DNA of 64,000 nt from Escherichia coli (GTDB lineage: Bacteria > Pseudomonadota > Gammaproteobacteria > Enterobacterales > Enterobacteriaceae): assembly GCF_044324875.1 (NCBI RefSeq), contig NZ_CP172185.1. One strand, 5' to 3'. The notes beneath the pieces are model-generated. The model searched no databases. It had not been told where the DNA came from and saw only the letters and a program-made list of their open reading frames with translations. The position numbers were made by a program, and so were the translations under genes. Below, piece after piece: positions 32,218-37,584 of the stretch. How positions within the stretch are numbered: the stretch's first letter is position 1; the number at the start of each line of letters is the position of its first letter.

Positions 32218-32287
32218 CTCAGCATCAGCGGTTAATGAGAGGGCTGAACCGATAATCGTAAGCGACTCGTCAGAACCGTATTGATAT

Positions 32288-32604
32288 TTACTGAGAGCTC
32301 AGATCAACTTTCCAGGGCAACAGATCGCGTACCCGGTTTGCCGGCCAGTCCTGGATATGTTCAATGACGTAACGCAGCCACTTTTCTGGCTCCACATTGT
32401 TCAGACGGCATGTGCCGATCAGCGAGTACAACACCGCCGCATGTTCACCACCGCTGTCGGAACCCGCGAACATCCAGTTTTTCCGGCCTACGGCCACTCC
32501 CCGTAAGGCGTTCTCTGCGATGTTGTTGTCGATTTCCACCCAGCCATTACTGCAGTACACGTTCAGTGCATCCCACTGTTTCAGCAGGTATGCGAACGCT
32601 TTTG
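32288..32604 (-). pseudogene. tnpC: IS66 tnpC, C-terminal portion (split by IS21-family element)
   Basis: …[64 protein letters not shown]…. Confidence 0.8.
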
Positions 32605-32704
32605 CTGCGTATTCCGCTCTATTCGATCACGGATTGGCATCGAAGTCCGATCAGCGATTCGCATCCATTCGATCAACCGGGAACTTAACTTTTTCTACCG
32701 CTTT

Positions 32705-33460
32705 TTAACGCGTTTTTTCGCTGCTTTCCACTACCGGGGGATTTTTCCTCAGTGACTCTCCCTGAAGGACCACTCGGTGTGAGTTATGTACCAGTCTGTC
32801 CAGGATGGCATCTGCTGTTGTTGGGTTCTCCATCAGACCATGCCATTTATCTACCGGGAACTGGCTTACCACTATCGTGCTGCTTTGTCCGTAACGATCC
32901 TCTATGAGCTCCAGAAGGTCATTACACTGGGCGTTACTTAACTGTTCCAGCCCCAGATCGTCCAGGATTAGAACCTGTATTTTTTGCAACTGTTTCAGAT
33001 ATTTCAGCCAGCTGCCATCAACACGTCCCTGAGCCAGTTGTTCCAGTAATCGCCCGGTTCTACAGTACCGGACGCTGTGTTTCTGTCGACATGCCTGTTC
33101 GCCCAGCGCATTGGCTATCCAGCTCTTGCCACATCCTGTCGGACCGGTTATCAGCAGGTTTTTCCTGTGGGTTATGTAGTGGCCGTTCAGCAGTTCTCTC
33201 ATCTGTTCAGCCCGCAGACCTCTTGAGGCCGGATAGCGCAGCCCTTCCGGTGTTGCCTGGTATTTCAGGCCGGCATTTTTTCTCAACCGTGCCACACGGC
33301 TGTTTTCCCTGCTCAGAAGCTCGTCATCAACCAGCAGCGTCAGCCTTTCCTCGAACGACAGTTCGTCGTAGGTCTGAGGCGTTTCCCGCTGCCGTATCAG
33401 GCTCCCGGCCATCGCCGGGAGTTTCAGTTGGGTCAGTTTGTTTAACAGGTTATCACTCAT
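32705..33460 (-). CDS. istB: IS21-family helper ATPase IstB
   Basis: Walker A …ITGPTGCGKSW…, Walker B …LILDDLG…; start taken at MSDNLLNKL (the ORF track extends upstream without a plausible start). Confidence 0.85.
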   Translation of the reverse strand: MSDNLLNKLTQLKLPAMAGSLIRQRETPQTYDELSFEERLTLLVDDELLSRENSRVARLRKNAGLKYQATPEGLRYPASRGLRAEQMRELLNGHYITHRKNLLITGPTGCGKSWIANALGEQACRQKHSVRYCRTGRLLEQLAQGRVDGSWLKYLKQLQKIQVLILDDLGLEQLSNAQCNDLLELIEDRYGQSSTIVVSQFPVDKWHGLMENPTTADAILDRLVHNSHRVVLQGESLRKNPPVVESSEKTR

Positions 33461-33476
33461 ACTGTTGTTCCTTCTG

Positions 33477-35244: not shown

Positions 35245-36504
35245 TTTTGCCGTATCTGAGTGACGCGACAGTGTTTTCATCTGTTGCTGTATCCAGTCAT
35301 ACAGTGACTGCATCAGTGGCGCGGCTCTGGCTTTTCTTGCCGCCAGACGCTGTTCTGCTGAACAGCCCCGGACCTCTGCCTCGATGGCATACAGTTCACC
35401 GATACGCTGCAGGGCTTCCGTGGTGATGTAGGTGGGCGCTCTTGCATGCACATCGTGGATTTTTCTCCGGGCATGAGCCATACACGCGGCTTCCGTTATT
35501 CTGCCGGATTCGTATAACGCCCGGTAACCACCGTAAGCATCGGCCTGAAGCACACCGCTGTAACCGGCCAGGTGATTTTGTGGATGGATACCTTTCCGGT
35601 CCGGACTGTACGCGAACCAGACCGCCGGGGGCATCTGTGAACCGGCGTTACGGTCATCACGGACGTAGACCCACAGCCGGGCTGTCCGGGTTTTACCGCT
35701 GCCCGGCTCCTGGACCGGGACGGGGATATCATCAGCATGGACTTTACCGGGCATCAGCACATACTGGCGCAGGACGTCATACAGCGGCTCCAGCAGTTCA
35801 GCAACAGCACCTGTCCAGCGCCCCAGTGTGGCACGGCTCAGCTCCACTCCCTGACGACGGTATATTTCTGACTGGCGGTATAACGGCAGATGGTCTGCAT
35901 ATTTCCCGGTGACAACATGGGCCAGAAGCCCCGCTCCGGCATAACTGCGTGCAATGGGTTTTGAAGGTACTGGTGCCTGCACGATATGGTCGCACCGGCA
36001 ACAGGCCTGTTTCGGACGTTGTGTTTCGATAACCTTAAAGGCGCTGCTGATAAGCTCCAGTTGCTCTGACACATCACATCCCAGAGAACTGAGTTCACCA
36101 CCACAGGCAGGACAGCATTCCTCTTCCGGCCGGATAACCCGGGTTTCACGGGGAAGTGAGGCCGGTAACGGTTTACGGGCTGAAGACTGGCGCAGGGCGG
36201 ATGGCAGTACCGGGTCATATTGCTCACCCAGCGTTTCCGCCATTTCTTCCTGAAGTGCGCTGATTCGCTCCTGTGCTTCCTGTATCTGCCGTTCGGTTTT
36301 TGCACGAAGTTTTTCTGAGCTTTTACCGAACTGCATACGTTGCAGTTTCGCAACCAGCGCCTTCAGCCGGTTGATTTCGGAAGCATAAGCCGCCACCCGC
36401 TGTGAGAGCAGGCGGTTGTATTCAGCCATCTGGCGGATGGTGTCCTGTTGCGTCTGCAACAGTGCCCGCAGGCGGGCGTTCTCATGAGCAAGTGAGGTGT
36501 CCAT
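35245..36504 (-). pseudogene. tnpC: IS66 tnpC, N-terminal portion (split by IS21-family element)
   Basis: 436 aa readable; homologous to copy-1 TnpC up to …[11 protein letters not shown], then runs into the IS21-family terminus. Confidence 0.8.
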
Positions 36505-36523
36505 ATCCTCACTTTACAACGGG

Positions 36524-36871
36524 TTATATGCGGATTCCAGCGCGTTCCGTTCGTTTCGGGTGCTTCCAGTTGATACCTTCAAGAAGCATGGATAACTGAG
36601 CCGGAGTAAGGTGCACCTTGCCGTCACGGGTGACTGGCCAGACGAAGCGGCCCCGCTCCAGGCGTTTGGTGAAGAGGCACAGTCCGTCACTGTCAGCCCA
36701 CAACACTTTTATCTGGTCACCCCGGCGTCCGCGGAAGATGAACAGGTGTCCGGAGAACGGGTCATCCTTCAGGACGTTCTGAACTTTTGATGCCAGGCCG
36801 TTAAAGCCATTTCGCATATCGGTGATACCTGCAACCAGCCAGATACGCGAACCTGCAGGGAGAGATATCAT
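36524..36871 (-). CDS. tnpB: IS66-family TnpB (copy 2)
   Basis: 115 aa, [26 protein letters not shown]…. Confidence 0.8.
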   Translation of the reverse strand: MISLPAGSRIWLVAGITDMRNGFNGLASKVQNVLKDDPFSGHLFIFRGRRGDQIKVLWADSDGLCLFTKRLERGRFVWPVTRDGKVHLTPAQLSMLLEGINWKHPKRTERAGIRI

Positions 36872-37548
36872 CAGTGGCTGCTCCCTTTTATTTCGCGGAT
36901 AAGTGTCTGTAATAACGCCGGCGTCAGTTTACCTTTAAGCCTGAGAGTTCCGGCCGGCAGAACCAGCTCACAACACAGACTGTCGGACGGTGTATTTATC
37001 TGCTCTGGTTCCTGTGCGGGGGCCGGGATTTTATTATCCGGCTCCGGCGTTAACGTCACGGGAAGCAGTGCCGGCATATTTTTTCCGGAAGGCAGCAGGC
37101 CACCTTTCCGGTATTGATGGCGCCAGTTGAAGAGCAGGTTATCGTTGATTCCGTTTTCCCGGGCGATCTGCGCCACACAGGCTCCGGGCTGCAGTGACTG
37201 CTCCACTAAGGCGATTTTAAACTCATAAGGGAAGTTGGGCCGCCGGGGACGTTTTTTTACCACGGGGGCTTCGGATATAACGGTGCTTTCAGGACGTACG
37301 ACTGGTACCGTGGAAAATTGTCCGTAAAGGCAGGCATCAAGTTCCTGCTCCGACATGCCTGCGGGCAAAGGCCACGAAAGGCCAGCTCTCCGAAAGCGCA
37401 CGAACATACTACAAACTGTTGATTTTGGTACACCCAGGCGACGCCCGGCCACAACCCGGGGTAAATGTTCTTCAAAGTGAAGACGTAAAGCTTCAGTGAT
37501 CCAGGTCCGGTGTTTCATACGATAGTGTCCATTAAAAATGATGGACAT
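36871..37548 (-). CDS. IS66 TnpA-like ORF with a foreign N-terminal extension (IstA-like HTH segment); likely a fusion/pseudogene
   Basis: C-terminal 130 aa align with copy-1 TnpA but lack their own Met. N-terminal about 95 aa (…GVPKSTVCSMFVRFRRAGLSWPLPAGMSEQEL…) resemble the N-terminus of IS21-family IstA. Confidence 0.5.
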   Translation of the reverse strand: MSIIFNGHYRMKHRTWITEALRLHFEEHLPRVVAGRRLGVPKSTVCSMFVRFRRAGLSWPLPAGMSEQELDACLYGQFSTVPVVRPESTVISEAPVVKKRPRRPNFPYEFKIALVEQSLQPGACVAQIARENGINDNLLFNWRHQYRKGGLLPSGKNMPALLPVTLTPEPDNKIPAPAQEPEQINTPSDSLCCELVLPAGTLRLKGKLTPALLQTLIREIKGSSH

Positions 37549-37584
37549 TATTTTTGTAGAGCCGGAGGAAACAGACCAGACGGT

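Follow-up and report, generated by a model that had tools for sequence, protein, structure and literature searches.

Members of the IS21 family duplicate 4-8 bp of target DNA on insertion. Copies identical to the IS21-family element studied here are labeled in RefSeq as 'IS21-like element ISSso4 family', and the closest described relatives are the ISSso4-type elements of Shigella and E. coli. The element is 100% identical in sequence to the RefSeq copies so labeled and shares the istA-istB gene order, TG...CA ends, multiple subterminal repeats, and a 6 bp duplication. The element itself shows no difference from that type; the name used here for the 2,639 bp variant is the one that RefSeq gives as its product label. 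Direct copies of an IS element can bracket segments that are deleted or amplified via RecA-dependent recombination. The locus resembles such systems in having identical 2.6 kb direct repeats around 25.9 kb of accessory DNA, and differs from them in that both copies retain their own duplications and that no recombinant form of this interval is known.

The host of one of the two IS21-family copies belongs to the ISCro1 group of the IS66 family. It was in Citrobacter rodentium ICC168 that ISCro1 was first described, as an expanded insertion sequence (PMC3072379). The copy in the 64 kb stretch of E. coli DNA that was analyzed (the window) is like ISCro1 in its length (2,699 bp), its tnpA/tnpB/tnpC genes, its GTAA... 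ends, and its 8 bp duplication, and its restored TnpC is identical to a RefSeq 'IS66-like element ISCro1 family transposase'. It differs in being inactivated by an IS21-family insertion in tnpC and in being nested in an IS3-family remnant. A similar nest is found on ColV-type plasmids (pAST19_1, locus L005; NC_007675.1), where the same IS21-family element sits in the same orientation in an IS66-family tnpC, also at (A/G)KAF codons. The plasmid host, however, is another IS66 element (59-66% amino acid identity), and its insertion, which duplicated CCTTCC, lies 1 nt off the position used in the window. The plasmid nest is therefore an independent event.

We read the locus as very likely a three-layer stack of ordinary insertions in an IS-rich E. 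coli island, with the innermost element inserted once more at a distance of 26 kb. These are known insertion sequences and textbook biology in an avian/extraintestinal-type E. coli virulence island, and the arrangement is in that sense ordinary. The locus has little importance beyond annotation, for which the corrected boundaries and a third nesting layer are useful. The split tnpC and the IS3 fragments are best annotated as single disrupted genes, not as separate pseudogenes.

Two Identical Copies of an IS21-Family Element

The two copies, their genes, and their flanking duplications (read from the sequence) are as follows. The gene coordinates of copy A were taken from the annotation of locus L001.

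32606-35244, minus strand: IS21-family copy A, 2,639 bp, identical to copy B and to copies annotated in numerous E. coli genomes
32600-32605: target-site duplication TTTTGC, left of copy A
35245-35250: target-site duplication TTTTGC, right of copy A
33477-35012, minus strand: istA of copy A, 511 aa according to RefSeq for identical copies
32705-33460, minus strand: istB of copy A, 251 aa AAA+ helper ATPase
35116-35244: istA-proximal end of copy A, with about 5-6 copies of a motif of about 18-20 nt, GATGCCAAAnnnTGATCG, closing in ...TGCA (repeat search)
32606-32680: istB-distal end of copy A, opening with TGCG... and holding 2-3 inverted copies of the same motif (repeat search)
61134-63772, minus strand: IS21-family copy B, 100% the same as copy A
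61128-61133: target-site duplication TTGTCT, left of copy B
63773-63778: target-site duplication TTGTCT, right of copy B
62005-63540, minus strand: istA of copy B
61233-61988, minus strand: istB of copy B

The ends of copy A were set by comparing more than 40 different flanking contexts. An earlier note on this DNA had placed the element at 32605-35244; the right end stands, but the C at 32605 is the last base of TTTTGC and not the first base of the element. For copy B, both the coordinates and the differing duplication TTGTCT were as that note had reported. A BLASTN of the two regions gave a single ungapped alignment of 2,641 bp at 100% identity. The element accounts for 2,639 of the aligned bp and the final TT is a chance match of the two flanks, which leaves 0 differences in 2,639 bp, in agreement with the identity claimed before. 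The copies lie on the same strand as direct repeats. Their starts are 28,528 bp apart with 25,889 bp in between, in line with the separation of about 26 kb given earlier.

The gene content and ends are those of the IS21 family. The family requires istA, for a DDE transposase with an N-terminal HTH, followed by istB, for an AAA+ helper ATPase; this pair is present, and both genes are intact; the open frame of istA in copy A extends upstream to a TTG at 35123. IstA scores 284 bits against NCBIfam transpos_IS21 (cut-off 160) and matches Pfam rve and Mu-transpos_C_2. IstB scores 257 bits against NCBIfam IS21_help_AAA (cut-off 200) and 204 bits against Pfam IstB_IS21. The element has TG...CA ends with repeated subterminal motifs of the IS21 type, and these motifs are putative IstA-binding sites. 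The duplications are 6 bp at both copies in the window, and 13 other full-length copies with duplications have matched lengths of 4-7 bp. Transposition in the family depends on IstA and IstB and passes through a tandem or circular junction intermediate. The element is probably competent for it, to judge indirectly from the intact ORFs, the identical copies at 44 distinct sites, and the up to 23 places that it occupies in one genome.

The IS66-Family Host and Its Split tnpC

Copy A lies within an IS66-family element, the limits of which were confirmed by end-to-end alignments to intact copies in two other genomic contexts.

32258-37601, minus strand: IS66-family element (ISCro1 family), host of copy A
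32250-32257: 8 bp target-site duplication CGATAATC, left of the IS66 element (uninterrupted site in L002)
37602-37609: 8 bp target-site duplication CGATAATC, right of the IS66 element
32288-32605, minus strand: tnpC 3' fragment, aa 419-523 plus stop; Pfam DDE_Tnp_IS66 246-283 and DDE_Tnp_IS66_C
35245-36504, minus strand: tnpC 5' fragment, aa 1-420; Pfam LZ_Tnp_IS66, zf-IS66, and DDE_Tnp_IS66 1-232
36524-36871, minus strand: tnpB; Pfam TnpB_IS66 136 bits, NCBIfam IS66_TnpB 129 bits
36871-37548, minus strand: tnpA, 225 aa; NCBIfam IS66_access_TnpA 296 bits

The element had earlier been drawn at 32247-37560; the 8 bp duplication and the end-to-end alignments correct this span to 32258-37601. It begins GTAAGCG... 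and ends ...CCGGTTAC, with imperfect terminal inverted repeats that start with GTAA (IRL GTAAGCGACTCG..., IRR GTAACCGGCTCA...). All three genes of the tnpA/tnpB/tnpC trio are present, TnpC scoring 346 bits against transpos_IS66. With IstA, IstB, TnpA, TnpB, and TnpC all above curated cut-offs, the IS21 and IS66 family calls of the earlier note are right. At random, each 6-mer duplication would match with a probability of 1/4,096, and the 8-mer with one of 1/65,536.

Removal of copy A and one TTTTGC leaves an IS66 element of 2,699 bp. Over positions 1-2699 it is 99.96% identical to the intact copy of L001 and 99.93% identical to that of L002. Set against an intact copy from strain F344, the 2,699 bp show 1 mismatch. 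The tnpC frame is restored exactly, as had been proposed, and encodes without a break a 523 aa TnpC; an alignment to RefSeq WP_000381395.1 shows 0 mismatches. The LZ, zf-IS66, DDE_Tnp_IS66, and IS66_C domains are all present in the restored protein, with the DDE_Tnp_IS66 match running over 1-283 of 284 positions. In the window, the open frame of the tnpC 5' fragment continues 16 codons into copy A, as far as 35194. The uninterrupted copy A site, with a single TTTTGC, is seen in the intact ISCro1-family copies of L001 and L002. Other strains contain the uninterrupted sequences of both the copy A and the IS66 targets, matching over 60 nt without a mismatch.

An Outer IS3-Family Layer

A third layer of the nest, absent from the earlier note, surrounds the IS66 element.

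31828-32257, minus strand: IS3-family transposase remnant, 3' part; Pfam rve 51-102 in the ORF at 31960-32217
37610-38400 (right limit approximate), minus strand: IS3-family transposase remnant, 5' part; HTH_21 and rve 2-39 in the ORF at 37585-38118

Before restoration, the rve domain is detected as two half-matches of 28 and 32 bits. When the IS66 element and one copy of its duplication are removed, a 280 aa OrfB frame results, in which rve matches over 2-102 of 102 positions with 77 bits and HTH_21 scores 35.5 bits. The HTH_21 and rve core that mark an IS3 OrfB are thus both found, and RefSeq labels the homologous segment 'IS3 family transposase'. Positions 31828-32134 are 100% identical to a fragment in L004 annotated 'integrase core domain'. 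The IS3 piece is a decayed fragment; its frame ends early, and it is annotated as frameshifted or partial in related genomes.

Occurrence in Other Genomes

Of 5,426 complete E. coli genomes, 225 contain the full-length IS21-family element, with as many as 23 places in one genome, and 232 of the 72,556 plasmids searched have it as well. Many of these copies are 100% identical. The loci fetched held 44 distinct insertion sites. Among GTDB representatives, the 37 nt IS end occurs only in Citrobacter braakii, Buttiauxella warmboldiae, and one 530 bp Galbibacter contig. The flanks of the window were in 0 of 47 metagenome loci. No complete E. coli genome covered at least 80% of the 10 kb or 23.5 kb window queries, and neither the copy A nor the copy B insertion was found in the 5,426 genomes or the 72,556 plasmids.

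Two apparent counterparts were considered and set aside. Strain F1022 (L002) was a candidate for the same locus with an empty copy A site. Its ISCro1 lies inside ISEc8, flanked by the duplication GAAAAATG, and is therefore a separate insertion, though F1022 still provides both uninterrupted target sequences. A group of hits in other genomes resembled the same nest. In strain F344 the IS21-family element lies 341 bp outside the intact ISCro1 copy and is therefore not nested.

Order and Age of the Insertions

The likely sequence of events begins with an IS3-family element already at the site. An ISCro1-family IS66 element would then have landed in the gene for the IS3 transposase and duplicated CGATAATC. 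Next, the 2,639 bp IS21-family element would have entered the IS66 tnpC at codons A419-K420, duplicating TTTTGC and cutting TnpC short within its DDE domain. The same IS21-family element would also have inserted separately into AT-rich intergenic DNA past the CP4-like module, duplicating TTGTCT. The island is in effect an insertion-sequence graveyard, with elements piled into one another.

One step of this order could have run differently, if the IS66 element had received its IS21-family insertion elsewhere and the pair had then moved as a 5.3 kb unit into the IS3 remnant, with the TnpC of another ISCro1-family copy acting in trans. Both the ends and the 8 bp duplication of the IS66 element are intact, so mobilization in trans is mechanistically possible; ISCro1-family copies are widespread among related strains, and the order of events would look alike. 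We nevertheless regard this as improbable, as the exact copy A junction is absent from the 5,426 genomes and the 72,556 plasmids searched, and the only similar junctions involve another IS66 relative, where the duplicated bases also differ.

We infer that both IS21-family copies inserted recently and within this lineage. Support for the earlier claim that the insertions were independent and recent comes from the 0 differences in 2,639 bp, the intact istA and istB genes, and the duplications, which are intact and different at the two copies. The undecayed state of the IS66 element (1 mismatch in 2,699 bp) and the absence of both insertions from the genomes and plasmids searched lend further support. 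The ISSso4-type element has thus probably been active in this lineage until recently, or still is. Identity by itself dates the insertions poorly, since many unrelated strains, and plasmids too, have identical copies. Gene conversion between copies could partly account for the perfect match. That the copies are old and kept identical in this way is nonetheless highly unlikely, given that no sequenced relative of the island has either insertion and that the disrupted IS66 element has not accumulated damage.

Two further explanations concern the pair of copies. The perfect identity of the copies, and the end of the window only 228 bp beyond copy B, could be taken as signs of an assembly artefact in which one repeat was placed twice or misjoined. 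A misjoin through the repeat would leave mismatched duplications, so the matched 6 bp duplication at each copy argues against misassembly. When the copies are removed, the flanks of A rejoin an exact tnpC, and those of B rejoin into continuous DNA, for which the homologous intergenic sequence of 195 E. coli chromosomes gives an unbroken alignment (distant-mode search, 70-73%). No complete E. coli genome gave a near-identity match to the DNA flanking copy B. The misassembly doubt raised earlier is not supported, and an artefact is extremely unlikely. Equally far-fetched is the arrival of both copies and their interior as a single composite transposon (32606-63772, 31.2 kb): the direct copies do give the two outer boundaries ends of different types, around accessory cargo that includes a phosphoethanolamine transferase and an integrase, but in place of the one matching outer duplication expected of such a unit the outer flanks are unlike (TTTTGC left of A, TTGTCT right of B). 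The island of strain LH50-c, moreover, is colinear with the interior and is without both copies.

Insertions into IS66 Elements

The recurrence of the stacked arrangement in other IS66 tnpC genes is the sole mildly interesting point. Independent insertions of the IS21-family element lie 1 nt apart at conserved (A/G)KAF codons in two IS66 elements of about 60% amino acid identity. In unbiased samples, IS66 elements hold about 10% of the distinct insertion sites. L005, L007, and L008 have similar flanks; the query that recovered them included the window's own flank, and the sample is therefore biased. A single hot spot in tnpC was rejected as a general rule, the unbiased tnpC sites being at codons of about 256, 296, 418, and 467. 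We found no report in the literature on IS21 target preference or on IS21-in-IS66 nesting. The 1 nt spacing and the share of about 10% would fit a true preference of the ISSso4-type element for IS66-family elements, and tnpC especially, but such a preference is doubtful, and the sites may be occupied only because insertions there are tolerated. A preference could rest on the weak target motif observed (GCYT at -8 to -6, T at -4, and A at -2). If it were true, one insertion sequence would be systematically disabling another.

The Bracketed Interval and Its Possible Recombination

The segment between the copies was annotated from L003, at 99.0% identity, and with Pfam and NCBIfam.

35245-61133: interval between the direct copies, 25,889 bp

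It holds the 5' part of the IS66 element, IS3/IS911 debris, PhoX, an outer-membrane protein, the phosphoethanolamine transferase, a TPR protein, a tyrosine integrase, an IS2-like element, a CP4-like module with toxin-antitoxin and antirestriction genes, and two ORFs without a family match. There are no tRNA genes in the 64 kb window.

Recombination between copies A and B, dependent on RecA, could plausibly delete the 25.9 kb between them or amplify it in tandem; the earlier note had suggested as much, soundly on general grounds. Each copy retains its own matched duplication, and the two have therefore probably not exchanged since insertion. Perfect direct repeats of 2.6 kb around 25.9 kb are likely to be a spot for both structural variation and assembly trouble. 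Elsewhere, 5 of 18 full-length copies of the element are without matching duplications. The left flank of one of these, L021, is common to the copies in L025 and L035, which do have matched duplications, and this shows that copies of the IS21-family element join in rearrangements in nature.

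Structure of the nested insertion

The window carries two copies of a 2,639 bp IS21-family element, copy A within the tnpC gene of an IS66-family element and copy B outside it. A repeat search of the window placed the copies in direct orientation with their starts 28,528 bp apart and 25,889 bp of DNA between them. A blastn of the two regions gave a single ungapped alignment at 100% identity. The earlier note's claim of a second identical, direct copy about 26 kb away is borne out, and the base-by-base comparison that it called for returned 0 differences. Its different duplications, TTTTGC for copy A and TTGTCT for copy B, were found as described. 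Its right end for copy A (32605-35244) also holds. Its left end does not, because base 32605 is the final C of the TTTTGC duplication and the true start is 32606.

Features of the nest and of the second copy
31828-32257 and 37610-~38400: IS3-family transposase remnant
31960-32217: IS3 remnant, ORF with rve positions 51-102
32258 (GTAAGCGACTCG...) to 37601 (...GAGCCGGTTAC): IS66-family host element, within an 8-bp duplication, CGATAATC
32600-32605 and 35245-35250: TTTTGC duplication flanking copy A
32606-35244: copy A, IS21-family element
35194-36504: truncated tnpC ORF, running 16 codons into the IS21 end
36524-36871: IS66 tnpB, intact
36871-37548: IS66 tnpA, intact
37585-38118: IS3 remnant, ORF with HTH_21 and rve positions 2-39
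61128-61133 and 63773-63778: TTGTCT duplication flanking copy B
61134-63772: copy B, IS21-family element

The duplicated TTTTGC lies at tnpC codons A419-K420. Without copy A and one TTTTGC, the IS66 element is 2,699 bp long. It aligns from one terminus to the other with intact ISCro1-family copies that occupy two other contexts, one in strain F344 (99.96%) and one in F1022 (99.93%). The tnpC frame is restored exactly, as had been proposed: the resulting 523 aa TnpC has 0 mismatches to WP_000381395.1 and matches Pfam DDE_Tnp_IS66 over 1-283/284. The span first assigned to the IS66 element, 32247-37560, is incorrect, and the ends are instead at 32258 and 37601 with flanking CGATAATC. A second, intact IS66-family element (427-2868) lies in the opposite orientation, with ISEc8-like ends (GTAAGCGTACAGCC...), a 512 aa TnpC and an 8-bp duplication, AGATATTG. 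It shares about 71-74% nucleotide identity with the ISCro1-family element.

The ORFs immediately outside the IS66 ends each encode half of one integrase-core domain. Once the IS66 element is taken out along with one CGATAATC, they join as a 280 aa frame with a complete rve domain (2-102/102, 77 bits), and the uninterrupted 60-nt site is present in F1022, within a gene annotated as an IS3 family transposase. Thus, the nest has three layers, an IS21-family element in an IS66-family element in an IS3-family remnant. The nesting in tnpC had been recognized previously; the IS3 layer had not. This IS3 remnant has also been a target of other IS66 relatives in related islands: ISEc8 entered it in LH50-c and F1022, and in strain ECCNB12-2 ISEc23 and IS1414 are near it. 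An IS256-family (IS1414-like) element at 7903-9178 of the window, with a 401 aa Mutator-type transposase, is 99.8% identical to the ECCNB12-2 copy near an autotransporter gene.

Identity and distribution of the IS21-family element

The two ORFs encode an IS21-family transposase, IstA (NCBIfam transpos_IS21, 284 bits; also Pfam rve and Mu-transpos_C_2), and its helper, IstB (IS21_help_AAA, 257 bits; Pfam IstB_IS21, 204 bits). The element begins with TGCG and ends with TGCA. An 18-20-nt motif occurs in five to six copies at the istA-proximal end and, inverted, in two to three at the opposite end; such multi-repeat ends are the typical architecture of the IS21 family. RefSeq labels identical copies [quoted passage not shown]. 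Both ISSso4 and ISCro1 are established names (PMC3072379, PMC6361801, bioRxiv 10.1101/680777). The full-length element is present in 225 of 5,426 complete E. coli genomes, at up to 23 places per genome, and on 232 of 72,556 plasmids; these 232 are mainly conjugative plasmids of Escherichia, many of them from chickens. An exact match to this enterobacterial IS end in a Flavobacteriia assembly (L056, Galbibacter sp. EGI 63066) lies on a contig of 530 bp and is probably contamination of that assembly.

Independence and age of the insertions

The lack of A/B differences, the ORFs intact in both copies, the IS66 element disrupted by copy A without decay, the unshared copy-A junction and the unmatched DNA around copy B all point to recent insertion. 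Homogenization of the copies by gene conversion is unlikely. It is also unlikely that the IS66::IS21 unit arrived pre-formed. None of the 5,426 complete E. coli genomes or 72,556 plasmids has the exact copy-A junction, and junction-spanning matches there occur only with a different IS66 relative. Each copy keeps its own matched duplication, which shows that no exchange between the two has taken place since they inserted. A misjoin through a perfect repeat would pair the wrong flanks; an assembly artefact is made very unlikely by the perfect duplication of each copy, by copy-A flanks that rebuild exact tnpC and by copy-B flanks that rebuild sequence continuous with homologous DNA in 195 chromosomes. 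A 31-kb composite transposon arriving as a unit is ruled out by its unlike outer flanks. Independent, recent insertions, as originally suggested, are supported by the 100% identity, the different duplications and the unshared junction. The first interpretation is sound and the finding real, though close to known systems: familiar insertion sequences behaving as usual.

Across the junction, the rejoined copy-B flanks align in one piece with unannotated intergenic DNA of 195 E. coli chromosomes, to which they are 70-73% identical. No near-identical match to ~60184-61133 and 63779-64000 was found in the 5,426 complete E. coli genomes. In the restored site (61100-61133 + 63779-63860), the insertion point falls within a short ORF (MKNMLSFVVCLLIIYGCVSAV...) that has a lipoprotein-like signal sequence, so copy B may disrupt a small unannotated gene. 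A convergent pair of ORFs, 321 aa and 315 aa long, adjoins copy B at 58995-60904, and neither has a Pfam or NCBIfam match.

Target sites

The same IS21-family element splits a different IS66-family tnpC (59-66% aa identity) on pAST19_1 (L005 4290-8535) and on the ColV-type plasmid NC_007675.1 (165356-165611). There it hits the same conserved (A/G)KAF codons; the event is independent, since the site is shifted 1 nt from the window's and the duplication, CCTTCC, differs. Further copies (L007, L008, L011, L012, L038, L058) abut or split IS66 tnpC at codons ~256, 296, 397 and 467, or sit just beyond the stop codon. The sites do not form a single hot spot. The most striking tnpC cases are a biased sample, because they were retrieved with a query that included the window's own flank. 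In samples not chosen by flank similarity, ~4-5 of 41 distinct sites (about 10%) are within IS66 elements.

Across 44 distinct insertion sites (the window and comparison loci L001-L058), target bias is weak, with T at -4 in 28/44 and A at -2 in 22/44. GCYT starts at -8 to -6 in 10/44 sites, vs. ≤1 at other offsets. Matched duplications of other copies are 4-7 bp long, mostly 6. The pattern could reflect a mild sequence preference together with the tolerance of dead DNA for insertions.

Rearrangement and island context

As with direct repeats in general, recombination between copies A and B could delete or tandemly amplify 35245-61133. Matching duplications are missing in 5 of 18 full-length copies at other loci (L021, L007, L012, L040/L053); L021 shares its left flank with L025/L035, which have a proper GGATAC duplication, and has a different right flank. 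This indicates copy-copy recombination or adjacent rearrangement in natural populations, and is indirect support for a part of the element in rearrangements. Two IS2-like elements of 1,333 bp (15344-16676 and 50115-51447; 136 aa and 301 aa ORFs; HTH_21, rve and rve_3 domains) are inverted and 95% identical; an inversion of ~33 kb that takes in copy A could arise by recombination within this pair.

The window represents a kind of E. coli island known from avian-pathogenic and extraintestinal strains. Its closest matches are chicken isolates (99.0-99.8% identity), and it contains no tRNA gene.

Other island features
27908-31732: S6-peptidase autotransporter
39458-41437: PhoX
43668-45170: phosphoethanolamine transferase
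46828-48093: tyrosine integrase
within the window: AbgT transporter, outer-membrane protein, TPR protein
CP4-like module: toxin-antitoxin, antirestriction, RadC, DUF932 and GTPase genes

Where two ABC-transporter permease ORFs meet, 48 bp are perfectly duplicated in tandem (20378-20473). In the stretch 6198-6612, a YadA-like adhesin gene contains 99-bp tandem repeats at 6316-6513.
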